A stretch of DNA of 64,000 nucleotides from a bacterium (lineage in GTDB: Bacteria; Myxococcota; UBA727; JAUIJE01): positions 8,360-72,359 of the forward strand of contig JAUIJE010000003.1 of assembly GCA_030431455.1 (NCBI GenBank), in the 5' to 3' direction. Positions within the stretch are counted from its first letter, which is position 1, and each line of letters begins with the position of its first letter. This document shows positions 16,655 to 55,720 of the stretch, piece by piece. Made by a program: the position numbers and the translations under genes. A model generated the notes under the pieces. It was given only the letters and a program-made list of their open reading frames with translations, searched no databases and was not told where the DNA came from.

Positions 16655-16732
16655 GGAATCGAGCTTAGGCCGGGAACGTTTCCAGACAAAGGCGGGTCAG
16701 TCCGTCTAAGATTGAAAGTTGAGCGCGTCGGA

Positions 16733-20492: not shown

Positions 20493-20590
20493 CGTCCCGC
20501 GCCGAGACGCCGGACCAGAGCGACCGGTGCGTGGCCTGACTCGACAAAAGGGGCGAGGGTCAGGTACTCCTCCGTACCGAAGGAGGATGT

Positions 20591-24415: not shown

Positions 24416-25621
24416 TCAGAACCGTTCGATCTTGAAGTCGTCGTCGACCGGGGCGCCGGTCTGGCTCCGGACCGGGTTCTGCGGGGGCTGGCTGGGCGCG
24501 GCCGGCCGGCTCTGGCTTTGTTCGAAGTCGTCCCAGCGGGAGTCGGACGTGCCCCCAATGCCACTGACCCGCAGCTTGAAGTCGTCGGGGTTGGTGGCCT
24601 GGCGCACCGCCTCTTCGAAGGTGATGAGTTTGCGCGAGAGCAGCGACATCAAGGACTGGTCAAAGGTCTGCATCCCGTAGGTGGTGTAGCCGGCGGAGAT
24701 CGCGTCGTTGAGTTCTTTGGTGCGGTCTTTGTCCTCGATGAGCTCGCGCACCCGGGCGGTGGCCCGCAGCACTTCCACCGCCGCGACCCGGCCGCGCCCG
24801 TCGGCGCGGGGCACCAGGCGTTGCGACACCACCGACCGAAGAATCGCGCCCAGCTGGAGCCGGACCTGCTTTTGTTGGTAGGGCGGAAACGCCGCCACCA
24901 CGCGGGTGATGGTCTCGGTGGCGTCGAGGGTGTGCAGGGTGCTCATCACCAGGTGACCGGTCTCGGCCGCGGTCATCGCGGTCTCGATGGTCTCCAGGTC
25001 GCGCATCTCACCGACGAGGATGACGTCGGGGTCTTCGCGCAGGGCGCTCTTGAGGGCCCGGGCAAAGCTGCGGGTGTCGACGCCCACTTCGCGCTGGTTG
25101 ACGATGGACCGCTTGTCACGAATGAGGAACTCGATCGGGTCTTCGATGGTGAGGACGTGGCACGTGCGGTTGGTGTTGATGTGGTCGATGAGCGCGGCCA
25201 GGGTGGTGGATTTGCCCGAGCCGGTGGTGCCGGTGACGAGGATGAGGCCACGCTCTTCGCTTGCCACCTTTTCGAGCACGGGGGGCAAGTTGAGCTCGGC
25301 GATGGTGAGGATCTTGAACGGGATGACCCGGAACACGATGCCCACGGTGCCGCGCTGCATAAAGCAGTTGACCCGGAACCGGCCCAGGCCGGGCACGCCG
25401 TAGGCCAGGTCGATCTCGTTTTCCTTTTTGAAGACATCCTTTTGGTAGTTGTTCATGATCGAAAAGGCCATGCGACCGACCTCTTCGGGGGGCAGCCGGC
25501 GCGCGTCTTTCAGCGGCACCAACGACCCGTCGACCCGGAACATCGGGGGCAGGCCCGCCTTCAAGTGGATGTCCGAGGCGCTGCCTTTGATCGCGACGGT
25601 GAGGATGTCGTTGAGCTCCAC
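24416..25621 (-). CDS. pilT: type IV pilus twitching-motility ATPase PilT, with a ~50-aa C-terminal extension
   Basis: Walker A GTTGSGKSTT. PilT-specific motifs (EDPIEF, AHLVMSTLHT, AIRNLIRE-like VRELIEDKD). 401 aa. Confidence 0.9.
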   Translation of the reverse strand: MELNDILTVAIKGSASDIHLKAGLPPMFRVDGSLVPLKDARRLPPEEVGRMAFSIMNNYQKDVFKKENEIDLAYGVPGLGRFRVNCFMQRGTVGIVFRVIPFKILTIAELNLPPVLEKVASEERGLILVTGTTGSGKSTTLAALIDHINTNRTCHVLTIEDPIEFLIRDKRSIVNQREVGVDTRSFARALKSALREDPDVILVGEMRDLETIETAMTAAETGHLVMSTLHTLDATETITRVVAAFPPYQQKQVRLQLGAILRSVVSQRLVPRADGRGRVAAVEVLRATARVRELIEDKDRTKELNDAISAGYTTYGMQTFDQSLMSLLSRKLITFEEAVRQATNPDDFKLRVSGIGGTSDSRWDDFEQSQSRPAAPSQPPQNPVRSQTGAPVDDDFKIERF

Positions 25622-26904: not shown

Positions 26905-28653
26905 CTAAAGCCGCAACGACTCGATGTCGTCGGGGGCGGCGCCGTCCGGGTCGACGGTGACGGTGTAGCGGCCCGAGCGGGTCTTGGACTTGCTGACGAC
27001 CTTGCCGCTCACGAGGCCGCCCTTGGCGGTCTTGAGCGTGACCTTGGCGCCGACCTTGAGGCGCTGGGCCTGCTTGGCCGCGACGGTGGCGTAGACGGTG
27101 CTGGGGCCGGACGACTCGATCACCGCCACCGCGCTCCCCGCGCGCAGGGCATCGCCGGCCTTGACCGACAGGCTCTTGACCTCGCCGGAGATGGACGCGG
27201 TCACCGTGCCCCCCGCCCCGCCCTTTTTGGCTTGGGCCAGCTTTTTGCGCTCCTGCTCCAGGGCCTGTTTGGCCTCTTCCGAGCCGGAGCTGTTCACGAC
27301 TTCTTCGAGGGCGGCCACGCTTTCTTCGAGCCGGGCCACGTCGTCACCACCGCTGCCCGCGGCCACGACCAAGGTGTCGCCGGCGTCCACTTTGTCGCCC
27401 ACCGCGACGGCCACGCGCTCGATGGTGCCCGACACCTTGGCCGACACCGTGGCCTTGCGCGCGCGCGCCGCAGTGACATTGACGGGCACCCACGTCACCT
27501 TGCTCGGGGGCTCCGCGGCCGCGGCCGCGGCCGGCTCGGGGGCGGGCTCGTCGTCGTCCTCGTCCTCATCGGCGGCGGCCGCGCCGGACGCGGTCGCCGG
27601 TTTGCGGCGGGTGGACCGGCGGGCCTTGGCGACCTTCTTGGGCGCGGGGGCCGGCTCGTCGGTGGCCGGGGGCGTGGGGGGCGGATCGGGCTCGGCCGGC
27701 TCGTCGGCCGCGGGGGCGGGCTCGGCGGGGGCGTCGTCGACGGGCGCGTCTGCCGCCGGGGCATCCGCGGGCGGGGGCTCGGTGCCGGGGGCCGGGTCTG
27801 CGGGATCTGGGGGCGCATCCCCGGGCGCGTCCACCGCCCCGGCCCCGAGGGGGGTGTCGGCGGGGGGCGGGGGCGCGGGGTCGGTCGGCGCGGGGTCCTC
27901 GTCGGCCTGGGCCACCACCGGGATGGCCCCGTCCCCGACGAACAACATGCCCGCGTAGGCCCCGCCCCCGATGAACAAGGCCACGAACAGCCCGATGAAA
28001 AACGACGGCCACGCCGAACCCCGGCGCACGGGTGCAGTGACATGGGGCCGGGACAGCTCGGTGTTTTTTGGGTCCCAGGCGTCGGTGGGCGGGGGGGTGA
28101 GCGGGGCCTCCACCGCGATCTCGGGCGGAGAGAACTCCACGAACTCGCCCGGCGCGGGCTCCGCCACCGGGGGCATCGGGGGGTCGACCGAGGTGTCCGC
28201 ATCCACCGAGGTGTCCTCGGCGGAGACCAAAAACGGGGCTTCGTCCGCGGGGGCCGCGCGGCTCGGAACCGATGTCGACATGCCCGGGCTCACCGCGGTC
28301 TTGTCGCTCATGCCCTCGGTCTGGGAGAAGCGAAGCTTGCAGCCACAGATCTGGATGGTGTCGCCGTCGACCAGGGGCTGGCGGCGGATGGCCCGGCCGT
28401 TGACGATGGTGCCGTTGCGGCTCTCCTCGTCGATGAGCACGTATTGCTCCCCGTCGGCCACGATCTTCGCGTGGGTCTTGGAGACCCCGGGCTCCTGGGG
28501 CAAGTACAGGTCACTGCCCGGCCGCCGGCCGATCACAAATGTCCCTGCAGACAGCTCCCACGAACGGCCCGCCACCGTGCCTTCGATGCACACGATCTGC
28601 CCGGACAAGACCGAGGGCAGCTGGAAAATGACGGTGCGTTCGTTGTCGCTCAT
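26905..28653 (-). CDS. FHA-domain membrane protein with a Pro/Ala/Asp-rich periplasmic linker and a C-terminal biotinyl/HlyD-like barrel domain
   Basis: N-terminal FHA domain (GRRPGSDLYL..SKTHAKI..NGTIVNG), a single TM helix (AWPSFFIGLFVALFIGGGAYAGMLFV), a long P/A/D-rich low-complexity region, and a C-terminal lipoyl/HlyD-like fold. Confidence 0.7.
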   Translation of the reverse strand: MSDNERTVIFQLPSVLSGQIVCIEGTVAGRSWELSAGTFVIGRRPGSDLYLPQEPGVSKTHAKIVADGEQYVLIDEESRNGTIVNGRAIRRQPLVDGDTIQICGCKLRFSQTEGMSDKTAVSPGMSTSVPSRAAPADEAPFLVSAEDTSVDADTSVDPPMPPVAEPAPGEFVEFSPPEIAVEAPLTPPPTDAWDPKNTELSRPHVTAPVRRGSAWPSFFIGLFVALFIGGGAYAGMLFVGDGAIPVVAQADEDPAPTDPAPPPPADTPLGAGAVDAPGDAPPDPADPAPGTEPPPADAPAADAPVDDAPAEPAPAADEPAEPDPPPTPPATDEPAPAPKKVAKARRSTRRKPATASGAAAADEDEDDDEPAPEPAAAAAAEPPSKVTWVPVNVTAARARKATVSAKVSGTIERVAVAVGDKVDAGDTLVVAAGSGGDDVARLEESVAALEEVVNSSGSEEAKQALEQERKKLAQAKKGGAGGTVTASISGEVKSLSVKAGDALRAGSAVAVIESSGPSTVYATVAAKQAQRLKVGAKVTLKTAKGGLVSGKVVSKSKTRSGRYTVTVDPDGAAPDDIESLRL

Positions 28654-30665
28654 GGCGCGGCGGGCTCGCTCGGGGGTTGGATATCAAACAATACCGCACC
28701 CGCCTTCTCGCCTTTTTTCGCCACCCGGGCCTCGGCCACGACGCGGCGCGGCAGCACCCCGTGCGCCTCCAGGTACGCCTTCACCACGTCGGCGCGCTCC
28801 TGGGCTTGGGGGAGGCCCTTTTTCTTCTTGGCCAGCACCACGACCTTGACCTGTTCGATCCCGCGCTCCACCAGCAACACATCCACCACATCGTCGAGCA
28901 CAAACGCGGCCGCGCTCAGCAGCTCGGCGCTGCGCGAGGAGAACGCCACGTTGGCCGCGGTCTCGATCCGCCCCTCCACGCGCTTGGCGATGCGCCGGGC
29001 CGGGACTTTGTTGAGGCGGAACGCAACCTGAACCGGCTCGCCCATCACCGCCTCCACCACCCGGCCCGCGCGCAGGTACCCGTCGCTGTGCGCCTGCAGC
29101 ACCCAGGTCCCGGGCTCCACCGCGGTGGTGAACCGCCCGCCCTCGACGTCGACCTCGACAAAGCCTGAGCCGTCCTGCCGGGTCAACTCCACCGTGCCCG
29201 GGAGGGCCACGTCGTCGACTTCGCCCCGCACCGAGCCTTGCAGCGTCACCCGCTGGATCGGCCGCTCCAGCACCACCCGGCCGGGGGCGCCGTCTTCCAA
29301 TGTCACAGCGTTGTCCTCGAAGCCCTCCAGCGACACCGTCACCCGCCGGGTGGCGGCGGTCTCGGCCCACCCCCGGACACACCCGTCGTCGCCGGTGAGG
29401 CTGTCCGGCAACCCCCCGTCGCTGAACGACACCCGGGCCCCGGGGAGCGCGAGGCGCGCGCCGTCGGTGACGCAGACCTCCACTTTTTGCACCGCCGGCG
29501 CCGCGCCGTCGGGGGTGGCCGCCCCCTCGGGAAAATCGCCGCCCGCCGCCTCCGCCGGGGCCGACGACGACGGTGACGACGACGAGAACGCGTCCATGGA
29601 CACCGTCACCGAGCCCCCCGCGAAGTACAGCGGATTCAACGGTTGGCCATCGACCACGTTGGCCAGCGAGGGCGGGACGTAGCCGGCGTTTCCGGTGGGG
29701 CCAATGTCACAGAACAGCTCGAAGGTGACACCTTGAAATGGCGTCACCCGCACCCCCGGGGTCACCACCGTGTGGGGATCGAACACAAAGTCATAGTCGG
29801 CGCCCGAGGCCCCGCGCCCCGCGGGCACCATCAACGCGCCCTGCCACCAGGCCTCGACGAACGGGGTGACAAACGGCAAGGGCACCTCGACCGCCACCCC
29901 GCCAAACGCTTGGTCGTACCACCAATAGTCGCCGGCGGCGGCGAGCACGTGGCCGTCGACCCCTTGCAGGTAGTACCGGGCCCGGGTGTCGACCGGCGCG
30001 AGGTAGTGGGCGTTTTGGTACCGGTACCCGCCGTTGAGGTGGGCGCGAAAGGGCAAGCCGTAGGCGTCCGCGAGGTCGACGGTGACCAGGGCCGCGACCT
30101 GGGCGGAGAGGTTGAGGTAGTCCGGCACAATGCCATTGAGACGGGCCGGCATCGTGACCTGGGCGGACAGCCCCGCGGCCACGGGAATGGGAAAATCTGT
30201 GAACAGCCCCACGAGGCCCACCGGGTTGAGCTTGGCCCCGACGGAGAACTGGGGCGCGGCTTGGCGGGTGGAGTAGTCGCCGATGGTGTTTTCCGTGCCC
30301 GCGCCCAGGGCCTGAGCGGACAGCTCGACGAGGTCAAAAAAGCCCAGCGCGGCCGCGCCCCGGGCCCGCACGATGACCTGCTGGTCGACGTCAGGCCCGA
30401 CAAAATCCGGCAGATAGAACCCGCCCCCCGAGAGCTGGGCGGTGGCGGCCACCGGGCCGTACACCCGGGCCGAGGTCACCCGGCGCACCCCCACGAAGCC
30501 GTAGCGGTTGAGCACCCGGTCCGACGAGCCGAAGCCGAAGCCGTCGTCGCCGTCGTCCACGTCCGCCGCGGGCGCGGCCGCGGGTGCGTCCTGGGCGTGT
30601 GCGAGCGCCCCCCACAGACAGCCGAGGGCGGCCAGGGCGGGCGCGCAGGTTCGGGTCCCCCACAT
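28650..30665 (-). CDS. outer-membrane protein with C-terminal OmpA-like peptidoglycan-binding domain
   Basis: Signal peptide MWGTRTCAPALAALGCLWGALAHA. C-terminal OmpA_C-like segment (..AFSSRSAELLSAAAFVLDDVVDVL..VVLAKKKKG..RADVVKAYL). The stop of the upstream FHA gene overlaps by 4 nt. Confidence 0.65.
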   Translation of the reverse strand: MWGTRTCAPALAALGCLWGALAHAQDAPAAAPAADVDDGDDGFGFGSSDRVLNRYGFVGVRRVTSARVYGPVAATAQLSGGGFYLPDFVGPDVDQQVIVRARGAAALGFFDLVELSAQALGAGTENTIGDYSTRQAAPQFSVGAKLNPVGLVGLFTDFPIPVAAGLSAQVTMPARLNGIVPDYLNLSAQVAALVTVDLADAYGLPFRAHLNGGYRYQNAHYLAPVDTRARYYLQGVDGHVLAAAGDYWWYDQAFGGVAVEVPLPFVTPFVEAWWQGALMVPAGRGASGADYDFVFDPHTVVTPGVRVTPFQGVTFELFCDIGPTGNAGYVPPSLANVVDGQPLNPLYFAGGSVTVSMDAFSSSSPSSSAPAEAAGGDFPEGAATPDGAAPAVQKVEVCVTDGARLALPGARVSFSDGGLPDSLTGDDGCVRGWAETAATRRVTVSLEGFEDNAVTLEDGAPGRVVLERPIQRVTLQGSVRGEVDDVALPGTVELTRQDGSGFVEVDVEGGRFTTAVEPGTWVLQAHSDGYLRAGRVVEAVMGEPVQVAFRLNKVPARRIAKRVEGRIETAANVAFSSRSAELLSAAAFVLDDVVDVLLVERGIEQVKVVVLAKKKKGLPQAQERADVVKAYLEAHGVLPRRVVAEARVAKKGEKAGAVLFDIQPPSEPAAP

Positions 30666-30778
30666 GGGGGGAGGTTTTCGCCTCCGGCGGCGTAAATCAA
30701 GTTCCCCCGGGGCCGGGCCGGCCAAAACCCCTTTAGATCTCGGGCGGTTTCGGGCAGGGTCGCGCGCCTGGAGGCTTT

Positions 30779-31648
30779 ATGATCCCGCTCGATCTGTCCG
30801 GAAAAACCGCCCTCGTCACCGGCTTGGCCGACAACGTGGGCTTCGCCTGGAGCATCGCCAAAGCCCTGCAGGGGGCCGGCGCCGATGTCATCGCGTCCCC
30901 CCACCCGCGGGTGGCCGGCATCCTGTCCCGGTTCCTCACCCGGGAAAAAGACAAGGACAGCCGGGCCCTGCCCGGTGGCGGCGAATTTGCGCCCAAGGCG
31001 GTCATCCCCTGCGACGTGAGCTACGACGTGGCCGATGACGTGCCCGCCGACCTGCGGGACAAAAAAGGCTACGAGGGCCTCGACGTCTCCATCGAAGGCC
31101 TGGTCAAAGGCGTGAAGGAACATTGTGACGGGGTGGACATCCTCGTGCACTCGGTGGCGTTCTCGCCCGAGATTTCCAAGGACCACATCGACGTGAGCCG
31201 CGCGGCCTACATGACCGCGATGAGCGTGAGCTCGTATTCGTTGGTGTCGCTGTGCCGCGCGATCCGCCCCTTGATGGCCGGGCGCGCCGGGTCGGTGACC
31301 TGCCTGAGCTACCTCGCGGCCGAGCGCGTGGTGCCCTTCTACGGTGGGGGCATGGCCTCGGCCAAAGCCGCCCTCGAGTGCGATGCGCGCATGTGCGCGT
31401 GGTTCATGGGCGAGGACGGCCACCGGGTCAACGTCGTGAGCGCGGGGCCGTACGCGTCGCGGGCGGCGAAATCCATCGGCGACATCCAGAAGATGGTCGA
31501 CTACTGCGCCGAGCGTTCGCCGATCAAAGCCGCGGTCACGCCCGAGCAGGTGGCCAACACCGTGCTCTTCTTGTCGTCGAACATGTCGTCGGGCATCACC
31601 GGCAGCACCGTGTACGTCGACAGCGGCTACCACGCGATGGGCATGTAG
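30779..31648 (+). CDS. fabI: enoyl-[acyl-carrier-protein] reductase (FabI family SDR)
   Basis: LSGKTALVTGLADNVGFAWSIAKAL N-terminus and Y-x6-K catalytic region typical of FabI. 289 aa. Confidence 0.85.
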   Translation: MIPLDLSGKTALVTGLADNVGFAWSIAKALQGAGADVIASPHPRVAGILSRFLTREKDKDSRALPGGGEFAPKAVIPCDVSYDVADDVPADLRDKKGYEGLDVSIEGLVKGVKEHCDGVDILVHSVAFSPEISKDHIDVSRAAYMTAMSVSSYSLVSLCRAIRPLMAGRAGSVTCLSYLAAERVVPFYGGGMASAKAALECDARMCAWFMGEDGHRVNVVSAGPYASRAAKSIGDIQKMVDYCAERSPIKAAVTPEQVANTVLFLSSNMSSGITGSTVYVDSGYHAMGM

Positions 31649-31683
31649 GACGTTCGTCTCCCTGCACTGACATGGTGGCCTGT

Positions 31684-31715
31684 CTCCACTCGGTCGATCG
31701 CCCGAGCGGAGACAT
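31684..31715. terminator. Imperfect GC-rich hairpin GTCTCCACTCGG-N7-CCGAGCGGAGAC downstream of fabI and upstream of the paralog-A start (possible terminator or attenuator)
   Basis: An 11/12 inverted repeat is visible in the sequence. There is no downstream T-run, so the function is uncertain. Confidence 0.3.
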
Positions 31716-31769
31716 CGGCGGGGCCGGGCGCGCGATAACGTCCCTGGTGCCTCGGCACCGGGAGGCCCG

Positions 31770-34310
31770 ATGACGATCCGCCGTACGCCCACGTCCACGT
31801 ACAAGCCGAAGACCCAACGCAAGAGCATCAAACCGAGCCCCACGCGCACGACCTCGAACACGACGTCGAGTTCGTCGAGCTCGTCGACGCGCACCCCGGC
31901 CAGCACCGCCACCCAGCAGGCGAGCCGCACCCGGGCCGCGAACGCCGATGCCACCGCCCGCGCGCGGGTGGGCGCGTCGAACCCGTCCGGCACCGGTCGC
32001 GCCGGCGCGAGCGCCGCGCCCCCGCCCGAGAGCGCCCAAAAACGCGTCGAGCGCACCCGGGCCGACGCCCAAGAGGCGATCACCGCCGCCAACGACGTGC
32101 GCGCCCGGTACGACGACGCGCGCCGCGACCTGCTCCAAGCCTCGCTGCCGCGCTTTCTCGGGGGCAGCTCCCCGGCCGAGCGCGGGGACCTCGACAAGCT
32201 GCGGCGCCGCACGTCCCTGTTGCGCGACGCGAGCTTAAACGCGGACAAGAACGCGTACGAAAAAACCCAAACCGCGCTCGACGCCCAGCGCGAAGCCGGC
32301 GTCGCCCCCGCGCGCGCCCGGGTGTTCGGCGGCCAAGCGCCGGTGCCCACCCACCTCGAGAACCTCACCCCCGGCGAGCGTCAACAGGTCGCGGGCCAGG
32401 ACGTGCCGAGCCGCATCGCCAACATCCCCGACCGCATCTACGCGCAATCGGAAGAAGGCCAGCGCGAGGCCCAGGTCAACGCCGCGGTCGACGACATCAA
32501 CCGCGCGGTGGACGGCATCGACAGCGACGCCGACAAAGGCACGCGCAACGGCCAGACCATCAACGCCACCGAGACCCTCGAGCGCACCTTGCGCGAGGCC
32601 CCGCCCGAGCTGCGCGGGGAGATCCTCGAGCAGAGCCGGGACGCCATCGAGCGGCTGACCCCCAACCTCAAGGACCTGAACAAAGACGAGACCACCCGCG
32701 CGGTGGAAAATCTCACCACCGCCACCGAACACGCCGGCGCCCAGAACGCGCATCTGCTCACCGACCCCATCGCCGAGCAGGTGCAGGCGGGTTCGCTCGA
32801 GGAGCGCGGGTCGTTCTTGGGGCGGCACGATCACCGCAGCGAGCAGGAGTTTTCCGACTCGGTGCACGAGGTAATGCAGGACTCGGGGTCGGACCTGTTC
32901 GCCCGGTCGTTGGCCAACCAGCTGCACGAACGAGGCGACACCGGCTTTGCCAATGCCATTGCCACACACGGCGGGGTCCCGGGCAAAAACCTGCTCGAGC
33001 GCGGGAGCGAACTGTTCAGCAACGCGGTGGACAACGTCACCGGCTTCGTCGGCGACATCGCCAACGCGGGGGGCGATTTTATCCGCAACAAGATCGCGGA
33101 CATCGCCCAGATCGACCAGCGCGTGGCCGAGCTGAACTCCGAAGGGGATTCGTTCACATTGGGTCTCGGGGGCGAAGCCGCCGCCGGGGTCTCGGTGGGC
33201 GCGTCCGCCGAGATGGAGGTGCAAAGGACCGACGACGGCTACACCGTGACGGTGACCGGCGAGGCCTCGGCGGGCATCTTTGGCCAACTCGGGGCCAAGG
33301 CGGGGATCGGAGGCGGGGCCCTCGAGGGCCAGGCCAACGTCACCGGACAGGTCCAGGTCGAGGCCCACTTCGATTCCCTCGAGGAGGCCCAGCGGGCGGC
33401 CAGCACCATCGCGGGCATTGGCATTGGCACGGCGGTGGGCGGACCCGCGGGGGCGGTGGCCACCGGCGCCACCGCCACCGACGAGCTGCGGGCGTTCGGC
33501 GAGAACGTCACCGCCACCCGGATCGGGGTCGAGCTGTCCGGCTCGGTGGCGGCCGAGCTCGGGACCGAGGTCGGCCACGCCGGCCTCGGGGGCAGCGCCG
33601 AGATCGAAGCGTCGACGTCGGCCACGGTGGAGATTCGCCCCGGCGAAGCCCCGGCGTTGATCGTGGGCAGCGAGCTGTCCGGCGAGGCCAGCCTCAACGT
33701 GGGCATGGGCGATCTGGAGATGCCGGGGGGCGGTTCGCTCAACCTCGGCAGCGTGGGGGCCAAGGGCGGCGTCAGCGTCGAGACCCGCATCCCCCTCGAA
33801 GGCTTCTCGGTGCAGGACGCGCTCACCGATCCGGTGGGCACCCTGCGCGCGATCCCCGGCCGGATCGCAGACAGCGAAACCACGCTCAAGGCTGAAGTGA
33901 CATTGGAAGGCGAAATCAACCCCAGCATGAACCTCCCGGGGGACAACCAGGTCGGGTTCAACGGGGGCGGGGGCGCGCTCACCGCGGAGATCGCCGCCAC
34001 CATGCCCACCTCGGAGCTCGGCACCGCCGCGCGCCGGGCCCTGTCCGGCGATCTCGGGGGGGCGATTCGCGGCTTGTCCGACGAGGCCCAGCTCGACATT
34101 CAGATCGCCGCCCTCGACCGGCGCGGCTTCGAGATCGACGCGGACATCTCTGCGGGCATCTTCAAAGTCGGCGTCGAGGCCGCGTACATGACCGACGACA
34201 AGACCGACATCTTCACCTTCGAGGGCACGCCGCGCGAGCTCGGCCGCGAGGCCGCGGACTTCTTCGACACCCTCACCGACCCGCTGACCGAGAGCGTGAC
34301 CGGGGGTTGA
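31770..34310 (+). CDS. large hypothetical protein, paralog A of a tandem pair (no recognisable domain; C-terminal Gly/Ala-rich amphipathic beta-like segments)
   Basis: GGGAGG RBS. 846 aa with an S/T-rich N-terminus and no signal peptide. It shares long colinear similarity with the next gene (e.g. HRSEQE..DLFARSL..GGVPGKN..ELNSEGD.FTLGL..AHFD..A.TIAGIGI..AEVTLEG). Confidence 0.6.
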   Translation: MTIRRTPTSTYKPKTQRKSIKPSPTRTTSNTTSSSSSSSTRTPASTATQQASRTRAANADATARARVGASNPSGTGRAGASAAPPPESAQKRVERTRADAQEAITAANDVRARYDDARRDLLQASLPRFLGGSSPAERGDLDKLRRRTSLLRDASLNADKNAYEKTQTALDAQREAGVAPARARVFGGQAPVPTHLENLTPGERQQVAGQDVPSRIANIPDRIYAQSEEGQREAQVNAAVDDINRAVDGIDSDADKGTRNGQTINATETLERTLREAPPELRGEILEQSRDAIERLTPNLKDLNKDETTRAVENLTTATEHAGAQNAHLLTDPIAEQVQAGSLEERGSFLGRHDHRSEQEFSDSVHEVMQDSGSDLFARSLANQLHERGDTGFANAIATHGGVPGKNLLERGSELFSNAVDNVTGFVGDIANAGGDFIRNKIADIAQIDQRVAELNSEGDSFTLGLGGEAAAGVSVGASAEMEVQRTDDGYTVTVTGEASAGIFGQLGAKAGIGGGALEGQANVTGQVQVEAHFDSLEEAQRAASTIAGIGIGTAVGGPAGAVATGATATDELRAFGENVTATRIGVELSGSVAAELGTEVGHAGLGGSAEIEASTSATVEIRPGEAPALIVGSELSGEASLNVGMGDLEMPGGGSLNLGSVGAKGGVSVETRIPLEGFSVQDALTDPVGTLRAIPGRIADSETTLKAEVTLEGEINPSMNLPGDNQVGFNGGGGALTAEIAATMPTSELGTAARRALSGDLGGAIRGLSDEAQLDIQIAALDRRGFEIDADISAGIFKVGVEAAYMTDDKTDIFTFEGTPRELGREAADFFDTLTDPLTESVTGG

Positions 34311-34313
34311 TGG

Positions 34314-34345
34314 TTCAGCAATAAATTGCTGATTTTACAGTCATT
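34314..34345 (+). terminator. AT-rich perfect 18-bp palindrome TCAGCAATAAATTGCTGA followed by a T-rich tract, between the tandem paralogs (terminator or operator)
   Basis: Seen directly: 8-bp arms with a 2-nt loop, then ATTTTACAGTCATTTT. This is an unusually AT-rich patch in a 70% GC context. Confidence 0.35.
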
Positions 34346-34399
34346 TTCGTCGTCTTTGGCCGCGCCAAAAGCCGCCGCGGTCCGATAGATCCCTCACCC

Positions 34400-36835
34400 A
34401 TGGTTGTCCGGCGCTCCCCGCCCCCGTCTGTCCAGGTTCCGCGCTCCCGCGCCGCCGATTCGGCTGTCCCCGCCGCGTCGGCGCAGGAGACGACGGCCGC
34501 GTCCCCCGCCGCGTCCCCAGACGGCATCGACCGCGGGCCCGGCCAAAGCGCCCGGCCCGGCCAAAGCCCCGATGTCGCCGGGTTGCGCGCCGCCGCCCGG
34601 GCCGCGCTGGCCGCGGCCCAGGAGGCCCGCCACGCCGCAGACCAGGCCCAGGACGCGCTGTTGCGCGCCGAGCTGCCGGTGGTCAGCCACGAACTCGGCG
34701 CGCTGTTGCCCCCGCCGTTGCCCGGCCACGACGCAGAGACATTGTCACGGCTCCAGGCGCAGGCCACCCGCCTCGAAGACAAGAGCGCGGCCGCCGACCG
34801 CGCCGCCCACGACGCGCTCAACGCGGTGCTGCACGCCACCCACGGCGCCGGCCAAGCCCCGCATCACGTGCGGCTGGGGGGCCACCTCGCGCCGCTGCCC
34901 GCGCGGCTGTCGCAGCTTCTCGACGAGGAGCGCGCGGCGTTGGCCGGCCAGCCGGTGCCCGACCGCATCGCCCGCGTGGCCCAGCCCGACGACGGCGCCG
35001 CCCGCCGCGCCACAATGCTCAAGGGTCACCTGCGCACCCTGCGCGACGCGGTGGACGGCATCGACGGGCGCAAAAAGGCGCGGAACCGGGCGACCTTGGC
35101 CGCGGTCGCCACCGTCGCGCGCACCGTGGCGGACGCCCCCGCCGAGCTGCGCCCCATGTTGCTGCACCAGGCGCGCCCGGTGTTGATGCGCCTGAGCCTC
35201 GCGCTCCAGGACCTGGGCCCCGACGACACCCGCGCCGCCGTCGAACAGCTCAGCGCCGCGGCCGAGACCCTGGGACCGGCTCAGGTGTTTTTGCTCACCA
35301 GCCCGCTGGCCAGCGAAATCGCCGCCGGCAGCCTCGAGGAGGACAACACCTTCCTCAACCGGCGGCGACACCGGAGCGAACAAGAGCTCTGCGACGCCGT
35401 GCACGCGGTCATGAACGACACCGGCCACGACCTGTTCGCGCGGTCGTTGTGCCAACAGCTCGTGGTCCTCGACGATCTGGGCTTCGCCCAGGCGGTGGCG
35501 GTGGGCGGCGCGGTCCCGGGCAAGAACACCTGGGAACGCGGCAGCGAGCAGCTCGACGACGCGCTCCGGGATGTCAGCGCCTTCGTCGGCGACCTCGCCA
35601 ACTCGGGCGGCGACTACCTGCGCGAGCGCATCGCCGACTTGAGCGGCATCGACCACAAGATCGCCGAGCTGAACAGCAAGGGCGACAAGTTCACCCTCGG
35701 GCTCGAGGTCGAGGTCGCCACCGGGGCGGCGGTGTACGCCGCGGCCGAGCTCGAGGTCAAACGCAAAAAACACGGCCACTACGAGGTCACCATCTCGGGG
35801 GCGGCGGGGGCGGGCATCTTTGGCGCCCTCGGGGCCAAGGCCGGCCTGTTCGGCGGGGCCCTCGATGGGGAGGCCTACGCTTCTGGGTTCGTCGAAGTGG
35901 AGGCCCATTTTGACACCCGGGAAGAAGCTCTGGCCGCCGCCCGCGCCATCGCCGGCATTGGCATTGCGAGCGGGCTGACCGGCCCGGTGGGCGCCCTGGT
36001 GGTGGGGGCCACGGCCAAGGACGAACTGCGGCCTTTCCTCGACGGGCTGCACGCCACCCGGCTCGGCATTGAGCTCGAAGGAAAAGCCGAGCTCGACCTC
36101 GGCTTTGCCATCGGCCACGGTGGGCTCGCGGCGGAAAATGAGATCAAGGCCACCGCGTCGGCCACGGTAGAGCTGCGGCCGGGCCGCGCCCCCGCGCTGG
36201 TGGTGGCCAGCGAGCTCGAAGGCGAAAGCGTGCTCCGGCTGGGCCACGAAAAACTCAAGCTCCCCGGCGGGGGGGAACTCGAGCTGGGCAGCGTCGGGGC
36301 CAAGGGCACGGTGAGCCTCGAGACCAGCGTGTCGCTCGAGGGCATGAGCCTGCGCGACGTGCTGCGCGACCCGGTCAAGACGGTGCGGGGTCTGAAGAGC
36401 CGGCTCGCCGAGGCCGAGACCACCCTCGCCGCTGAAGTGACATTGGAAGGCCTGTACAACGCCGAGGGCGACCTGCCCCTGCACAGCGACATGAAGCTCA
36501 CCGCGGGGGGCGCCGCGGTCACCGCCGAGCTGGCCGCGACGTTGCCCCACAAAGACCTGGGCGAGTCCGCGCGGCGGGCGTTCGGGGGCGACCTCAAGGG
36601 GGCGCTGTCCGCGCTGTCCGACGAAGCGGTGCTCGAGGTCGAGACCCACGCGCTGGACAAGCGGGGGTTCGACATCGAGGCCGGCATCGAGGTGGGCATC
36701 TTCGCCATCGGGGTCGCGGCCGAGTATCTCACCGAGGACAAGACCAAGATGTTCGCCTACGAGGGCAGCCCGCGCGAGCTGCTCGACGAGGCGGCGGACT
36801 TTTTCCACCGCGTCACCGGCTCGATCACCGCCTAG
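34400..36835 (+). CDS. large hypothetical protein, paralog B of the tandem pair
   Basis: 811 aa, colinear with paralog A. It shares identical nucleotide blocks with paralog A (GCTGAAGTGACATTGGAAGG; GGCATTGGCATTG). Confidence 0.6.
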   Translation: MVVRRSPPPSVQVPRSRAADSAVPAASAQETTAASPAASPDGIDRGPGQSARPGQSPDVAGLRAAARAALAAAQEARHAADQAQDALLRAELPVVSHELGALLPPPLPGHDAETLSRLQAQATRLEDKSAAADRAAHDALNAVLHATHGAGQAPHHVRLGGHLAPLPARLSQLLDEERAALAGQPVPDRIARVAQPDDGAARRATMLKGHLRTLRDAVDGIDGRKKARNRATLAAVATVARTVADAPAELRPMLLHQARPVLMRLSLALQDLGPDDTRAAVEQLSAAAETLGPAQVFLLTSPLASEIAAGSLEEDNTFLNRRRHRSEQELCDAVHAVMNDTGHDLFARSLCQQLVVLDDLGFAQAVAVGGAVPGKNTWERGSEQLDDALRDVSAFVGDLANSGGDYLRERIADLSGIDHKIAELNSKGDKFTLGLEVEVATGAAVYAAAELEVKRKKHGHYEVTISGAAGAGIFGALGAKAGLFGGALDGEAYASGFVEVEAHFDTREEALAAARAIAGIGIASGLTGPVGALVVGATAKDELRPFLDGLHATRLGIELEGKAELDLGFAIGHGGLAAENEIKATASATVELRPGRAPALVVASELEGESVLRLGHEKLKLPGGGELELGSVGAKGTVSLETSVSLEGMSLRDVLRDPVKTVRGLKSRLAEAETTLAAEVTLEGLYNAEGDLPLHSDMKLTAGGAAVTAELAATLPHKDLGESARRAFGGDLKGALSALSDEAVLEVETHALDKRGFDIEAGIEVGIFAIGVAAEYLTEDKTKMFAYEGSPRELLDEAADFFHRVTGSITA

Positions 36836-38816
36836 CCGCCCGCTGTTCGAGCCCGAGGGCCACCGCCAAGCTCGCCGCGCAGAACACGTCGAGCCCAGCC
36901 TCGGACGGCGCCGCCCCCACCACCGCGGAGACCGCCCCCACCCGGGCCGCAATCGTGGACAGCCCGACCTCTGCCAATGTCTGCGCAGACCGTTCGAGGG
37001 CTTTTTGGCGCCGGGCGGATCGGCGCCCCACCCCCGCTTGCGCCAGCTCTTCGAGCCCGGCGCGCGCCTGCCGCAGCGCTTCTTGCACCGGGTCGGCGGA
37101 GGTCTCGAAGCTGGGCACGACCTCGAGGTCGTCCGGCCGCGCCACCGGCTGATGCAGATCGAGGGCGATGACCCGGTCGGTGACCAACAACATGGGGCGA
37201 AGCTCGGCCCCCCGCGGCGACAAGGTCAGCACCCCGGACAGGTACCGCACCGCGTTCGCTTTCACCGCGGCCAAAAAGACATCCACCGCGCCCGGGGTCA
37301 GGGCCCGGTGCTCGATGACCGCCTCCACCGCGACCCCGTCGTGTCCCACCACCTGGGCCCGGGCTTGCTGCGCGCCCGGCGCGTACACCGGCTCGGACAC
37401 CTCGGCCGGGCACAACGCGACGACGTTCTCGGCCAGCACCCGCGGCCGCAAAAACCGCGTGGGGCGGCGGCGCCAATGTGACAGGACCGGCGCGAAGTCC
37501 CGGTGCAGAACCTTGTCGGACCAGGACGCCCAGTCTCCCGACTGCGGCATCACCGACACTTTGCTCAACATCGCCTGGCCGAGGACGAGCGCGCGGTTGG
37601 GCCGGCGCTTGACCGCCTCGGTGAGCAGGTGCCCCTCGGCCAGGGCCCGGAGCTTGACCCCCCGGGCCATCAACCGCCCCCCCAGGGCAGGCCCGGTCGC
37701 CTCCCCCTGCGCGGGCCCGGGAAAACTCTTGGCCAGCACCAGCACGTTGCCCTGGTCGGGCTCGAGCAGCACCACCTCGGCGCGCACCTTGTCATCGTCC
37801 CGCCAGAGGCGGCAGCCCAATGAAACAGCACGCAAGCGCTTCAGCCGGGTCTCGGTCTTGACCTCGGTGCCGAGCACTTCGCTCTGGGGCAGGGGCGCGT
37901 CCTCGGTGTTCGCGGTGCGGCGCCTGGCCTCCAGTTCGCTCACCAGGTGCAGCAGCCGGGCCCCGGAAAAGCGCGCCGACCGGGTCTGGTAGGCCTCCAG
38001 TTGGTCCACGAGGTCGTCGGCACAAGACGCGGGCCAGGTGAAGCCCGCGTCGACGAGCGCCCCCCGTGCCGACCGCAGGCGGGCCACCATCGCGGGGTCG
38101 CAGCCCGACGCCCCCCCGAACAGCAAGCTGACCAGGCCGTCGCGGGCGGGGGCAAACGCTCCGTCGACGTCGAGCCGACGGGCGGGCTGGAGGTATACGG
38201 TGTGGGGGCGCGCGGCGCGACCGGATGCCCGCACCGCCCACACCGCCAAGGCGTGGTGCACACACGCCCCGCTGACGTCGCAATCGCATTGTGCGAACGC
38301 CAGGTCGCCCCCCAGCACAAACCGCACTGTGGAGGTGGGCAGCTCTACGGTGAGAATGCCCCCGGGCCCATCCAGGACCTCGGCCCGGAACCCCGCCCGC
38401 CGGACCTTCTCCGCTTGGCGGTACAGGCGGGCGTGCAGGTGGGCCTTCAGCGCGTCGTCGTCGATATCCGCCACCGGGGCGGCGGCCGGGGCGGACGCAG
38501 CGCCGGTTCCGGCCGCGTCGGGGCCGGAGGGGGCCGCCCGGGCGCGGTAGGCCATGACCAGCAGCAACGCGTGGCGGCACACCCCGGTGGACGCGCAGCT
38601 GCATTGGGCGTCGGATAGGGCGGTGCCGGGGGGCAGCCGGGTCTCGACCGCGTCGTCCTCGCTGACCACGGTGCCGTCGGCCTCGATGCGCAATGTCTCC
38701 GGACGGCCGGCCTCGCACAGCCGCCGGGCGCGCTTGACCAACCCCCGGTTGCTGAGCGCCACCAAGCGGTCGTCGTCGAGCACGAGGAGGTCGTCGCGCG
38801 CGCTCACCGGAGACAA
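36825..38816 (-). CDS. SWIM zinc-finger domain protein (YehQ-like component of MoxR-vWA system)
   Basis: SWIM CxC..CxH signatures (CSCASTGVCRHALLL and CDCDVSGACVHHAL). It is the last gene of the AAA-DUF5682-vWA-SWIM operon. Confidence 0.7.
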   Translation of the reverse strand: MSPVSARDDLLVLDDDRLVALSNRGLVKRARRLCEAGRPETLRIEADGTVVSEDDAVETRLPPGTALSDAQCSCASTGVCRHALLLVMAYRARAAPSGPDAAGTGAASAPAAAPVADIDDDALKAHLHARLYRQAEKVRRAGFRAEVLDGPGGILTVELPTSTVRFVLGGDLAFAQCDCDVSGACVHHALAVWAVRASGRAARPHTVYLQPARRLDVDGAFAPARDGLVSLLFGGASGCDPAMVARLRSARGALVDAGFTWPASCADDLVDQLEAYQTRSARFSGARLLHLVSELEARRRTANTEDAPLPQSEVLGTEVKTETRLKRLRAVSLGCRLWRDDDKVRAEVVLLEPDQGNVLVLAKSFPGPAQGEATGPALGGRLMARGVKLRALAEGHLLTEAVKRRPNRALVLGQAMLSKVSVMPQSGDWASWSDKVLHRDFAPVLSHWRRRPTRFLRPRVLAENVVALCPAEVSEPVYAPGAQQARAQVVGHDGVAVEAVIEHRALTPGAVDVFLAAVKANAVRYLSGVLTLSPRGAELRPMLLVTDRVIALDLHQPVARPDDLEVVPSFETSADPVQEALRQARAGLEELAQAGVGRRSARRQKALERSAQTLAEVGLSTIAARVGAVSAVVGAAPSEAGLDVFCAASLAVALGLEQRAARR

Positions 38817-39925
38817 TCCGCCACGAACTGGGCCAAATGCGCGGGGGTCATCGCGCCCACGAACGCGCCGAGGTCGGCCAGGGTCTGGCCCAACTGCCGG
38901 TCGTAGTCAGGGGCGGCGTTGTCGTCGAGGGCGGCGAGCACGAGCACCTTGGTGCCCTGGCTGCAGAGGTCCCGGACCTGCTGGATCAACCAGCGCGCGT
39001 CCCCCCCTTCGTAGAGGTCGGTGAGCAGCACCATGATCGCGCGGCGGGGCGACGCCACCAGGGAGGCCCCGTAGGAGACGGCGCGGGCGATGTCGGTGCC
39101 CCCGCCGAGCTGCACCTTCATCAGGGTCTCCACCGGGTCGGTGACGTGGTGGGTGAGGTCGACCACCTCGGTGTCGAACACGCAAAGGTGGGTGCGGATC
39201 TGGGGCAAGCCGTGCAAGCACGCGGCGGTCACCGACGCGTGGATGGTCGAGGGCAACATCGAACCGCTTTGATCGACGAGGATGATGATTTGCCATTTCT
39301 CGGAATGTCGACGTGCGCGGGACGAGAACACCGCGCGCTCGAGCACCAGCCTTCGGCGCGCGGGGTCGTAGTGCTTGAGGTTGGTGCGCAAGGTGGTGCG
39401 CAGATCGAAGTTGGCCGCGATCTTGTGGGCGCTGCGGCGGCGGCGGTCGAGGGTCCCGGTGAACGCGGTGCGCACCTCGACGGCCAGGCGCTCCATCAGC
39501 TCGCGCACCACCTGCTGGATGATCTTGCGGGCCATGGCGAGCACCTTCTCGTTCATCAGGTGCTTGGTGCGCAAAACCGCCTGAAGCAGTGACTCGGACG
39601 GCACCGCTTGTTCGAGAATGGCGGGGTCGGTGACGACCTCGTCGATGTGGTACCGCTCGACCGCGTCGGTCTGGAGGCGCTCGATGGTGTCCTGCGGGAA
39701 CAGCTCGTGGATCGCGTGGATCCACTCCGGCACCGTCAACGTCGACGGGCCCGGGCCGCCCTCGCGGGTGTGCAGGTCGCGCTCGGCCATCGAGGGGTCG
39801 CGGTCGTACAGCCAGGACAACGCCGCGTCCATGGCCGAGACCTCGCCTTCGCCCCGCCCGAGCACGGCCTCGCTGGCTTGGCCCAACACCAGGCGCCAGC
39901 GGTCGATGGGGTCGAGGTCGCTCAT
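38804..39925 (-). CDS. vWA-domain protein (YehP-like)
   Basis: vWA/MIDAS region IILVDQSGSM..T. The start is chosen at the ATG overlapping the upstream stop (ATGA); an alternative start lies 21 nt upstream. Confidence 0.7.
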   Translation of the reverse strand: MSDLDPIDRWRLVLGQASEAVLGRGEGEVSAMDAALSWLYDRDPSMAERDLHTREGGPGPSTLTVPEWIHAIHELFPQDTIERLQTDAVERYHIDEVVTDPAILEQAVPSESLLQAVLRTKHLMNEKVLAMARKIIQQVVRELMERLAVEVRTAFTGTLDRRRRSAHKIAANFDLRTTLRTNLKHYDPARRRLVLERAVFSSRARRHSEKWQIIILVDQSGSMLPSTIHASVTAACLHGLPQIRTHLCVFDTEVVDLTHHVTDPVETLMKVQLGGGTDIARAVSYGASLVASPRRAIMVLLTDLYEGGDARWLIQQVRDLCSQGTKVLVLAALDDNAAPDYDRQLGQTLADLGAFVGAMTPAHLAQFVADCLR

Positions 39926-42228: not shown

Positions 42229-42232
42229 GGCA

Positions 42233-43336: not shown

Positions 43337-43416
43337 GGGGCCTCCACCAACCGGTGTGACGGTACCCCAAACGGTCCGGTTTTGCCGTGCTAAAGATCGC
43401 GCCACCGGAGGTGACG
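43337..43416. promoter_or_regulatory. Divergent intergenic region between the MoxR-vWA-SWIM operon and the WGR-DUF4132 gene
   Basis: 80-bp spacer between two divergently oriented starts. GGAGGTGA Shine-Dalgarno before the ATG at 43417. Confidence 0.3.
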
Positions 43417-46941: not shown

Positions 46942-46956
46942 CCGACGGCGGGCGGC

Positions 46957-55632: not shown

Positions 55633-55720
55633 CGATCCCCTCCTGTTTGGGTAGGTGCCTTCTGTGGGCGGGATCGTTCTTTGAAAAGTGGGATCTAGGC
55701 CAATTCCTTTGAGATTTGGC

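Follow-up and report, generated by a model that had tools for sequence, protein, structure and literature searches.

The described systems closest to the sequence word reported here are HIP1 (Highly Iterated Palindrome 1, GCGATCGC) and the alternate HIPs of cyanobacteria, short dyad words far more abundant than a codon-aware model would predict. HIP1 exceeds expectation 15- to 300-fold (PMC5861425) and contains the known methyltransferase sites GATC and CGATCG (PMC4390886). Here we analyze a 64-kb stretch of DNA (the window) from a Myxococcota-like genome, in which a word built around CATTG behaves in a comparable way. Like HIP1, this word is built into ORFs by codon choice, on either strand and in various reading frames; it is lineage-restricted, sparse in probable foreign DNA, and has no known gene-level function. 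Its 8-mer is enriched 13-fold and its 11-mers 16- to 35-fold, values that can be set against those of HIP1. However, HIP1 is a perfect GC-rich 8-bp palindrome, whereas the CATTG word is rich in AT within a genome of 70% GC, and it is more degenerate, with CATTG as the strict half and variation in the other. HIP1 reaches more than one copy per gene, against about one per 2.5 kb here; it is tied to methyltransferase sites, while the CATTG word is linked to none; and the latter, unlike HIP1, is known from 68 kb of a single genome.

Three further systems invite comparison. Chi, the signal of RecBCD and AddAB, is likewise an over-represented short genic word with kilobases per site, but it is asymmetric, G-rich and co-oriented with replication, whereas the CATTG word is a dyad with an AT-rich core and without demonstrable polarity. 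The uptake sequences of Neisseria (DUS) and Pasteurellaceae (USS) resemble it in being species-specific and spread by point mutation in coding DNA in both orientations; they differ in being denser (about 1 per kb), non-palindromic, often arranged as inverted terminator pairs, and competence-dependent. In matS (GTGACRNYGTCAC), the enterobacterial MatP site, the first nine positions match a 9-mer of the window, GTGACATTG, but the second half-site is absent from the CATTG word, matS does not accommodate the variants AGACATTG and GGCATTG, and the matS pattern with two mismatches is not enriched in the window (12 vs 13.6).

Results

Identical 13-mers in an OmpA-like gene and two tandem paralogs

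A sequence-only reading of the window had noted one 13-mer, encoding V-T-L-E, in three genes. This was borne out: GTGACATTGGAAG occurs three times in the 64-kb window, and no copy was present in any of 100 dinucleotide-preserving shuffles. The copies are located at 29294-29306 (minus strand) in an OmpA-like gene, and at 33897-33909 and 36437-36449 (plus strand) in two tandem paralogs, within ORFs spanning 28650-30725 (minus), 31770-34310 (plus) and 34400-36835 (plus). Each is read in frame as GTG ACA TTG GAA G, which in the first paralog is embedded in A-E-V-T-L-E-G. The positions previously given for the paralogs, 33891 and 36431, mark where an identical stretch of 21 nt (GCTGAAGTGACATTGGAAGGC) begins, a few bases off the 13-mer, and a range ending at 36445 had cut the last copy short. 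The description of the 13-mer as a string of rare codons holds for ACA (5.9% of Thr codons) but not for GTG, the major Val codon; TTG accounts for 19% of Leu and GAA for about 27% of Glu codons.

The OmpA-like outer-membrane protein (P0003, 671 aa; gene at 28650-30662, minus strand) has no Pfam match for an OmpA domain at E<=0.001, and its earlier description as an OmpA-domain protein is instead supported by homologs that carry PF00691 and PF13620 and by a syntenic ortholog. VTLE is conserved neither among the OmpA-like homologs nor in this ortholog, which reads L-S-V-(gap)-D (CTG AGC GTC) at the same place; the column block is variable in an alignment of eight OmpA-like proteins, and the window protein is two residues shorter than its homologs there. 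Ortholog alignment had been proposed as a check on the 13-mer, with VTLE spelled in common codons as the refuting case, which did not arise because the orthologs encode no VTLE. Further motif sites in the same gene lie at 29702 (TGT GAC ATT GGC) and 30128 (CAATGGCATTG).

The tandem paralogs, of an orphan family (paralog 1, 846 aa, 31770-34310; paralog 2, P0001, 811 aa, 34400-36835; both plus strand), are 51% identical and carry their copies at homologous positions, as expected if two copies reflect paralogy; the distant homolog P0002 has GTG GAC CTC AAG (V-D-L-K) at the position of the third copy. These two copies are best read as one ancestral site retained by both paralogs. The copy in the OmpA-like gene, which is indeed unrelated to them, is an independent site that shares four further bases by happenstance. 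Its GAAG tail is outside the general motif and can be put down to minor coincidence or to a slight preference (CATTGGAA, 6 observed vs 0.3).

What recurs is not the 13-mer or the 9-mer GTGACATTG (7 observed vs 0.28 expected), as had been thought, but a word of 11-12 nt in which the CATTG core is invariant and the left part, CA[GA][TA]G, is degenerate. Each of the three 13-mer sites departs from this word at one position (CTGTGACATTG, AAGTGACATTG); the copy in the OmpA-like gene, read as an 11-mer at 29298-29308, is CTGTGACATTG, one mismatch from CAGTGACATTG.

A CATTG word is enriched beyond codon usage

The word can be written CA[G/A][T/A]G[A/G]CATTG(G), or approximately CAGWGACATTGG, an imperfect CAATG-N-CATTG dyad of 5-1-5 form. 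In the window CANNGNCATTG gives 29 strand matches (1.55 expected) at 25 places, next to 26 occurrences of GACATTG (about 4-5 expected) and 96 of CATTG, which are preceded by C at -6 in 69 cases and by CA at -6/-5 in 47. CARTGNCAYTG occurs 8 times (0.23 expected) and CAATGNCATTG with at most one mismatch 21 times (0.99 expected), while the reversed word, GTTACNGNNAC, has no match. The CATTG-word family ranks at the top of unbiased scans of both 8-mers and 5-N-5 gapped words, the leading 8-mer being GACATTGG (15 vs 1.25 under synonymous-codon shuffling).

Under a codon-aware null, in which synonymous codons are shuffled within genes, GACATTG is enriched in sense (18 vs 3.7) and in antisense (7 vs 1.7), as is GACATTGG (11 vs 0.83 and 4 vs 0.33, respectively), and this enrichment on both strands therefore reflects neither a codon-pair nor a peptide effect. 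It extends to each reading frame (8 vs 0.03, 11 vs 1.3 and 7 vs 0.2). The two halves are coupled: left CA and right CATTG co-occur with an odds ratio of about 20 in the window (counts 29, 4, 13, 35) as compared to 1.2 in relatives (11, 23, 82, 205), while general CA-CA periodicity does not differ between the two.

Sites are spaced about 2.5 kb apart (about 0.4 per kb) in coding DNA on both strands, with almost no intergenic copies and no inverted pairs in terminators. GACATTG splits 9 plus to 17 minus, without a significant overall bias, and GC skew is flat across the window. Density is about 5 per 10 kb over most of the window and 0-1 per 10 kb in a lower-GC polysaccharide cluster, probably horizontally acquired DNA, as would suit a signature native to this genome. 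The pattern persists in 3.6 kb outside the window.

Sites and their counterparts in relatives

Only four perfect dyads were found: CAATGTCATTG at 1263-1273, inside the 15-bp palindrome GACAATGTCATTGTC; CAATGACATTG at 13478-13488 in an AddA-like gene; and CAATGCCATTG twice, at 30128-30138 in the OmpA-like gene (L-N-G-I-V, CTC AAT GGC ATT GTG, where the ortholog has CTC GAC GGG CTC GGT) and at 32951-32961 in paralog 1 (A-N-A-I-A), a site that paralog 2 lacks. Symmetry is lost in the most frequent left half, CAGAG, which is part of CAGAGACATTG. The latter occurs on the minus strand at 2154-2164 (sense, ACA GAG ACA TTG), at 15515-15525 in an AddB-like gene (P-E-T-L, CCA GAG ACA TTG; orthologs CCG GAG CGC GCG, TGT GAC GAG GTG and ACC GTC GAA GTG), at 21562-21572 antisense to a beta-helix gene (20540-21868, plus) and followed by GAAG, at 53111-53121 in a different reading frame (CTC AGA GAC ATT GGC, with the very rare codon AGA), and at 53276-53286 (GAC AGA GAC ATT GTG), adjoined by CACAGACATTG at 53309-53319; on the plus strand it is found at 34734-34744 in paralog 2 (GCA GAG ACA TTG). 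CAGTGACATTG lies on the plus strand at 7969-7979, where it contains the 9-mer in frame AGT GAC ATT G, and at 27471-27481, antisense to an FHA/HlyD gene (26905-28683, minus). The remaining 11-mer places are 4817, 6641, 8048, 14648, 18366, 21184, 51989 and 59676.

Where amino acids are conserved (VSGIG, DIG, ALA), relatives spell them with common codons. The V-S-G-I-G of a PilT-like ATPase gene, encoded here by GTC AGT GGC ATT GGG (CAGTGGCATTG, 24556-24566, minus), is encoded by GTC AGC GGC ATC GGC in an 86%-identical ortholog, and at CACTGGCATTG in the AddB-like gene (16172-16182, minus; GCA CTG GCA TTG) three orthologs have GCG, GCC or GCT with CTC GCG. Overall, the motif was found at orthologous positions for 0 of 12 sites. 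Many sites correspond to CpG to TpG/CpA changes from the relatives' state (AGC to AGT, ATC to ATT before G, GCG to GCA). No enrichment was detected in about 385-390 kb of related Myxococcota genomes, neither over 26 loci (15 vs 16.9) nor in the three closest syntenic loci included there. Public data contain no close relative, the best AddB homolog being 46% identical.

Within the window, one-mismatch neighbours of the word are not depleted, so that an origin by conversion or repair gains no support from them, and a candidate CpG precursor, CG..G.CATCG, is undepleted as well (35 per 64 kb vs 205 per 385 kb in relatives). No similarity around the sites extends beyond 11-13 nt.

Retention between the tandem paralogs

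The paralogs share no identical stretch longer than the 21-nt run (33891-33911 in paralog 1). A second shared site, CATTGGCATTG, lies at 33416-33426 in paralog 1 (G-I-G-I-G, with ATT twice) and at the homologous 35956-35966 in paralog 2 (both plus). These two sites hold 5 of the 9 rare codons common to both genes and have been kept while synonymous sites elsewhere are close to saturated; a short gene-conversion tract could also account for this.

Discussion

We consider it probable, at about 85%, that the three 13-mers are instances of a DNA-level genome-signature motif. The signal is real, acts at the level of DNA, is independent of strand and frame, is restricted to this lineage, and was born by substitution. 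The earlier proposal of a DNA-level signal independent of protein context thus withstands scrutiny, with enrichment that codon usage does not explain in three settings of frame and strand, rare codons that spell the word in unrelated peptides, and orthologous positions in relatives that lack it. Its suggestion that the element is inserted does not, as flanking similarity is absent, no residues are added relative to homologs, and point substitutions make the sites.

It is unlikely, though a comparable repair-type model has been published for HIP1 (PMC4390886), that the word is a functionless by-product of a neutral, context-dependent mutation or repair bias active in this lineage, for example mismatch repair linked to methylation, as Elhai's model for HIP has it. 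Such a bias would fit the birth of sites by point substitutions, many of them CpG to TpG/CpA, together with the lineage restriction and the scarcity in the probable horizontally acquired cluster; but there is no shortage of near-cognate words, the CG..G.CATCG "precursor" occurs at the frequency seen in relatives, two sites survive between paralogs near synonymous saturation, and the 11-nt specificity, with coupling over 6-10 nt, requires a sequence-specific reader anyway. We find improbable a Chi-like hotspot, that is, a polar single-strand signal for double-strand-break repair read by a host AddAB-type helicase-nuclease. An AddA/AddB-like gene pair is present at 10119-16696, the commonest form of the word, CAGAGACATTGG, is asymmetric with 5 of 6 copies on the minus strand, and the density of Chi in E. 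coli resembles the one per 2.5-5 kb seen here. Yet strand bias over all GACATTG sites is not significant, sense and antisense enrichment are equal after accounting for coding constraints, perfect dyads would be unexpected, and the Chi sites described so far are 5-8 nt in length and rich in G. More doubtful still is a DUS/USS-like sequence accumulating through preferential uptake of same-species DNA and subsequent recombination: the word is species-specific, has both orientations, tolerant coding frames and a point-mutation origin, is scarcer in the probable foreign cluster, and shares the window with type IV pilus/T2SS-type ATPase genes, but known DUS/USS exceed it in density and fold-enrichment, its inverted terminator pairs are absent and intergenic copies almost nil, dyad symmetry is no feature of uptake sequences, and competence is not known for the lineage.

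A translational preference for particular codon pairs, or an mRNA-level signal, is very improbable and already largely refuted. ACA-TTG (17 vs 1.1 expected) and GCA-TTG (11 vs 1.6) are indeed in excess, and the sense setting xxG ACA TTG accounts for 13 of the 25 GACATTG sites in genes; against this, the word is 4- to 12-fold enriched in antisense and also enriched in the GAC ATT G / AGA GAC ATT G frame, its coupling to CA two codons upstream draws on additional rare codons, and relatives of similar GC content lack the enrichment. We give slightly less credence to paralogy and chance without an underlying signal, or to a conserved VTLE peptide motif as its variant. Two copies are at homologous positions, and the extra GAAG, given GTG-ACA-TTG, would be a coincidence of about 1-3%; as a full explanation, however, chance is refuted by the codon-aware enrichment and the unbiased scans, with the 13-mer never seen in shuffles and the core word family massively enriched window-wide, and VTLE is unconserved in the OmpA-like homologs and ortholog. 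Finally, the same string in unrelated genes might point to an inserted or mobile element of small size, or to errors of assembly or base calling where DNA is modified, possibilities to which we attach next to no weight: similarity ends at 11-13 nt with reading frames intact, insertion is rejected since the window protein is two residues shorter than its homologs at the site, and three independent sequencing runs gave assemblies that match the window exactly over 34 kb and therefore rule out an assembly artefact.

For the genome-signature motif, the most coherent picture is one in which the word enters genes by point substitution rather than insertion, through rare synonymous codons (ACA, GCA, CCA, AGA, AGT, AAT, ATT, TTG) and tolerated amino-acid changes. 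It may be recognized, on double-stranded DNA and throughout the genome, by a sequence-specific factor, where "genome-wide" is an extrapolation from about 68 kb of one genome; with its dyad symmetry, the word points to a dimeric protein that binds or modifies DNA. The specific HIP1-like mechanism is tentative and in our judgment has slightly less than even odds. Under it, the abundance of the sites would be upheld by selection or by recognition-linked biased repair, as has been proposed for cyanobacterial HIP1.

Results

The 13-mer GTGACATTGGAAG, reported in the sequence-only reading from an OmpA-like gene and from both of two tandem paralogs, was found in exactly three copies in the window and in 0 copies in 100 dinucleotide-preserving shuffles. 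One copy lies at 29294-29306 on the minus strand, within ORF 28650..30725 (-), and the other two lie on the plus strand, at 33897-33909 within ORF 31770..34310 (+) and at 36437-36449 within ORF 34400..36835 (+). All three are read in frame as V-T-L-E through the codons GTG ACA TTG GAA G, bearing out that observation, and the chance estimate of ~4e-4 attached to it is correct because the G+C content of the window is ~70%. The OmpA-like gene (28650-30662, minus strand) is unrelated to the tandem paralogs. The 9-mer GTGACATTG, singled out in the same reading, was observed 7 times as compared to 0.28 expected. An interpretation of GTGACA as a −35 box was rejected, since direct reading of the three sites retrieved no −10-like hexamer 17 nt downstream.

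The core GACATTG/CAATGTC appears 26 times in the window (about 4-5 expected), which places it second among the 630 words with this base composition (mean count 2.15). A position matrix built from all 96 CATTG sites in the window, aligned, revealed preferences for C at −6 (69/96), A at −5 (56/96), G at −2 (54/96), A or G at −1 (75/96) and G at +5 (49/96), with no information content in the aligned sites outside the 11-12 motif positions. These column preferences therefore define the word as CA[G/A][T/A]G[A/G]CATTG(G), the perfect form of which, CAATG-N-CATTG, is a 5-1-5 palindrome; a motif-bearing sequence, written out, is CAATGACATTG. Taken as 11-mers, the three 13-mer sites are CTGTGACATTG and AAGTGACATTG, each one mismatch away from CAGTGACATTG.

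The degenerate 11-mer form of the word, CANNGNCATTG, has 29 strand matches at 25 places, as compared to 1.55 expected from dinucleotide shuffles, and 26 as compared to 1.64 when synonymous codons are shuffled; CARTGNCAYTG occurs 8 times (0.23 expected). The perfect dyad CAATGNCATTG is present in 4 copies, and 21 sites match this palindrome with at most one mismatch (0.99 expected), while the commonest form, CAGAGACATTG, carries two mismatches to it, in the left half. The reversed word, examined as a control, had 0 occurrences in the window. Unbiased scans retrieved the same signal: the ranking of all 5-N-5 gapped words was headed by CAATGNCATTG, CAGAGNCATTG and CAGTGNCATTG, and among all 8-mers, scored against the synonymous-codon shuffle, GACATTGG ranked first (15 versus 1.25) and AGACATTG second (11 versus 0.65). 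Left and right halves are statistically coupled, with counts of 29, 4, 13 and 35 for left CA/CG against right CATTG/CATCG (odds ratio ~20). A general CA-N4-CA periodicity was rejected as the cause, the 3-nt coding periodicity being equal in the window and in relatives.

Beyond the word itself, CATTGGAA occurs six times, at 21562, 29298, 33899, 36439, 40901 and 51995, as compared to 0.3 expected under the synonymous shuffle, and with the last of these an element with inverted arms is formed, GGCATTGGAATGCC, at 51989-52008. CATTGGAA may extend the motif weakly on its 3' side; GGAA(G) was rejected as a general 3' part of it, as the position matrix shows no preference there. The third 13-mer copy, in the OmpA-like gene, also has the GAAG beyond the word, which we estimate, from the number of GTGACATTG sites and local codon frequencies, to be a coincidence of ~1-3%.

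We shuffled synonymous codons within each gene, a codon-aware null that keeps the protein sequences and the per-gene codon usage. Against it, GACATTG was found 18 times in sense (3.7 expected) and 7 times in antisense (1.7 expected), and GACATTGG 11 times in sense (0.83) and 4 times in antisense (0.33), and thus the fold-enrichment is equal on both strands relative to transcription. CANNGNCATTG is enriched as nCA NNG NCA TTG (8 versus 0.03), as nnC ANN GNC ATT G (11 versus 1.3) and, in antisense, as nnC AAT GNC NNT G (7 versus 0.2). The over-representation of this partly dyad-symmetric 11-12 nt word in the coding DNA of this genome is strong and specific, and extends to both strands and to all frames able to accommodate it. 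Enrichment in antisense and in several frames rules out a translational codon-pair bias. A peptide motif is ruled out as well, since the peptides vary by site (ETL, VTL, QTL, MTL, RDI, SDI, NGI, ALAL, GIGIG, NV and others) and VTLE is not conserved in homologs. The word is a DNA-level signal, and not a peptide or codon-pair effect.

The motif codons are rare codons of this genome, and codon choice carries a clear footprint of the word: ACA is followed by TTG in 17 of the 60 ACA codons (1.1 expected), and ~30-38% of all ACA, ATT and AAT codons fall in CATTG/CAATG words. Codon usage in the window is unusual for 70% GC, with TTG making up 19% of Leu, CAA ~33% of Gln and AAA ~39% of Lys codons. 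The synonymous-shuffle null also revealed other deviations in coding DNA, with 35 CAAAAAG/CTTTTTG as compared to 9.2 expected, a ~2.5-fold enrichment of CTCGACGA-type words, and a depletion of runs of seven C or G (17 versus 61). In the DUF5682 gene, the apparent start reads ATG ACA TTG GTG (M-T-L-V), a motif copy at 42220-42230 (-) overlapping the start codon.

The OmpA-like protein of the window has no Pfam match of its own at E<=0.001; its homologs, 31-35% identical and aligning across its C-terminus, carry PF00691 (OmpA) and PF13620, as does the syntenic ortholog, in locus L034 of a relative. Scanning with the OmpA-like alignment, we retrieved 26 loci, all from Myxococcota or 'Deltaproteobacteria' metagenome-assembled genomes. 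In the ~390 kb of these loci GACATTG is not enriched (15 versus 16.9 expected) and the left-right coupling is absent (odds ratio 1.2). Public data contain no close relative: the nearest ones reached through AddB show no more than 43-46% identity. Three loci from these relatives, L032-L034, share partial synteny with the window, and the motif is not enriched in them.

We compared 12 separate motif sites whose genes have orthologs, all of the latter distant; the word was present at 0/12 orthologous positions, and wherever the peptide is kept, it is encoded by common codons in the relative. Thus, V-S-G-I-G in a PilT-like ATPase (86% identical) is GTC AGT GGC ATT GGG in the window and GTC AGC GGC ATC GGC in the ortholog; D-I-G in the OmpA-like protein is GAC ATT GGC and GAC ATC GGC, respectively, and A-L-A in the AddB-like protein GCA CTG GCA and GCG CTC GCG. 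At the VTLE position the syntenic OmpA-like ortholog reads L-S-V-(gap)-D, the block is variable across all seven OmpA-like homologs, and P0002, a distant homolog of the paralogs, has V-D-L-K (GTG GAC CTC AAG). Alignment of the orthologs therefore indicates that VTLE is not conserved, the word being absent from them, and that the word has arisen in this lineage by substitution.

The tandem paralogs are 51% identical over 703 residues and have A-E-V-T-L-E-G at the same aligned position. They matched nothing in Pfam, NCBIfam, PADLOC or PDB sequences, a search among 5.8 billion proteins retrieved only themselves and the single distant homolog P0002 (37% identity), and a scan of the genome collection with the paralog alignment found no relatives; they are thus a nearly orphan family, and P0002 alone served for comparing orthologs of these two genes. 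Their N-terminus is rich in Ser/Thr/Pro, and they contain Gly/Ala-rich repeats. No stretch of identity between the two genes exceeds a 21-nt run, GCTGAAGTGACATTGGAAGGC, the next longest being 16 nt. Where residues are identical, the same codon is used in 241/393 cases as compared to 190.5 expected from codon usage alone, and synonymous sites are therefore largely, though not wholly, randomised. Nine rare codons are common to both paralogs, 5/9 of them within two motif sites: the VTLE-site run, with GCT/ACA/TTG, and CATTGGCATTG, at 33416 in paralog 1 and 35956 in paralog 2, with ATT ATT in both. Judged from these two sites (n=2), the comparison suggests that motif sites were preferentially retained between the paralogs; a short gene-conversion tract could also lie behind the sites they have in common.

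Sequence examined from this genome amounts to ~68 kb, comprising the window and 3.6 kb past its right edge, where the same CA-N4-CATTG pattern is seen. Logan assemblies of three separate sequencing runs have 0 mismatches to the window over 34 kb, and these identical independent assemblies rule out an assembly artefact. The organism is present in runs ERR3420974, ERR3428548 and SRR24442552. Overall motif density is ~0.4 per kb, with ~5 sites per 10 kb in most of the window, including the ~15-kb paralog segment. The gaps between sites, read by eye from their positions, are Poisson-like with no obvious clustering. Only 1/26 GACATTG sites falls outside predicted long ORFs, with 0 inverted intergenic pairs, and the strand distribution (9 plus versus 17 minus) is not significant; GC skew is flat across the window.

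Sites thin out to 0-1 per 10 kb in a polysaccharide-biosynthesis cluster of lower GC (0.664) at 53.9-64 kb; this polysaccharide / nucleotide-sugar cluster (53900-64000) has 0 GACATTG and 1 CANNGNCATTG. Near-absence of the motif there is consistent with horizontal acquisition, and the low density is as expected for a host-specific signature that foreign DNA gains slowly.

The paralogs lie within ~15 kb (window 31650-46950) bounded by an adh_short gene (30779-31648) on one side and a Dus gene (46957-48327) on the other, together with a 663-aa ORF, VWA_CoxE, DUF5682, a MoxR/GvpN-like AAA ATPase and a WGR+DUF4132 protein. In L034 (1-1291) the adh_short and Dus genes are adjacent, and the segment was therefore either inserted in the window or deleted in L034. 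Motif density in this segment is close to native.

Discussion

Over-represented short words are rare windows onto whole-chromosome processes, as with HIP1, Chi, DNA uptake sequences and KOPS. To our knowledge, the function of HIP1, the highly iterated palindrome, is still unknown after decades, and its occurrence is essentially confined to cyanobacteria. HIP1 is over-represented by a factor of 15 to 300, is conserved both inside ORFs and from one ORF to another, and lacks a gene-level function; one proposal gives it a part in chromosome structure (PMC5861425), and another explains its origin by repair linked to a methyltransferase (PMC4390886). The word described here resembles HIP1 in its large over-representation against composition- and codon-aware expectation, and in its placement inside ORFs, where codon choice produces it on both strands and in several frames. 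By this analogy, and from ~68 kb of the genome, it appears to be an iterated oligonucleotide specific to this genome and similar to HIP1. HIP1 is a short perfect palindrome, and this word occurs in perfect as well as imperfect forms; unlike HIP1, it is also AT-rich, in a Myxococcota-like genome of 70% GC. The window encodes no DNA methyltransferase genes, and our literature search found nothing specific on CAATG/CATTG over-representation or Myxococcus methylomes.

The sequence-only reading took the element for a DNA-level signal inserted or selected independently of protein context; the signal and its independence held, while the insertion did not, and the unit is neither the 13-mer nor the 9-mer. 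A mobile MITE/REP-like repeat would have brought flanks or residues with it, and the sites have no common flanks, no similarity beyond the word and no extra residues in alignments with homologs; they arose through point substitutions. Neither a methylated CpG precursor (CG..G.CATCG), which is not depleted relative to the relatives and is too rare as a source, nor the one-mismatch neighbours from which conversion would draw, also not depleted, lends support to an origin by pure decay or repair.

We infer a factor that reads double-stranded DNA in a sequence-specific manner. Such a reader would recognise the word, would be a dimer as suggested by the dyad, and the abundance of the word would then be kept by selection or by recognition-linked biased repair. 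An AddA/AddB-type pair with UvrD helicase and PD-(D/E)XK nuclease domains (10119-16696, minus strand) speaks for a Chi-like role with this enzyme, and the organism therefore probably has its own Chi sequence; yet the dyad symmetry, the lack of significant polarity, the few intergenic copies and an enrichment symmetric in sense and antisense make that role less likely. Chi sites are polar, oriented along the direction of replication, and are recognised by the helicase-nuclease. The symmetry, the absence of significant polarity and the scarcity of copies between genes likewise make DNA uptake less likely. DUS/USS reach about one copy in each kb and are often arranged as inverted pairs at the ends of genes, unlike this word at ~0.4 per kb. 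The matS site of MatP is a 13-bp palindrome, GTGACRNYGTCAC, and its matches with at most two mismatches (12 versus 13.6 expected) rule out that reading.

It is therefore possible, with a probability we put at roughly 0.4, that this deep-branching and poorly sampled Myxococcota lineage has its own genome-wide CA[GA][TA]G-N-CATTG quasi-palindrome, read by a dedicated dimeric protein that binds or modifies DNA, and maintained by selection. If true, this would be an AT-rich counterpart of HIP1 outside cyanobacteria and, as an independent case, another system for studying the purpose of such words. If the density of the window holds, an 8-10 Mb genome (assumed size) would contain ~3,000-4,000 copies. 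The word accounts for about one-third of the ACA, ATT and AAT codons of the genome, which are otherwise puzzling. If genome-wide, it would be a sensitive marker of native versus acquired DNA, and it may help to bin metagenomic contigs of this lineage.
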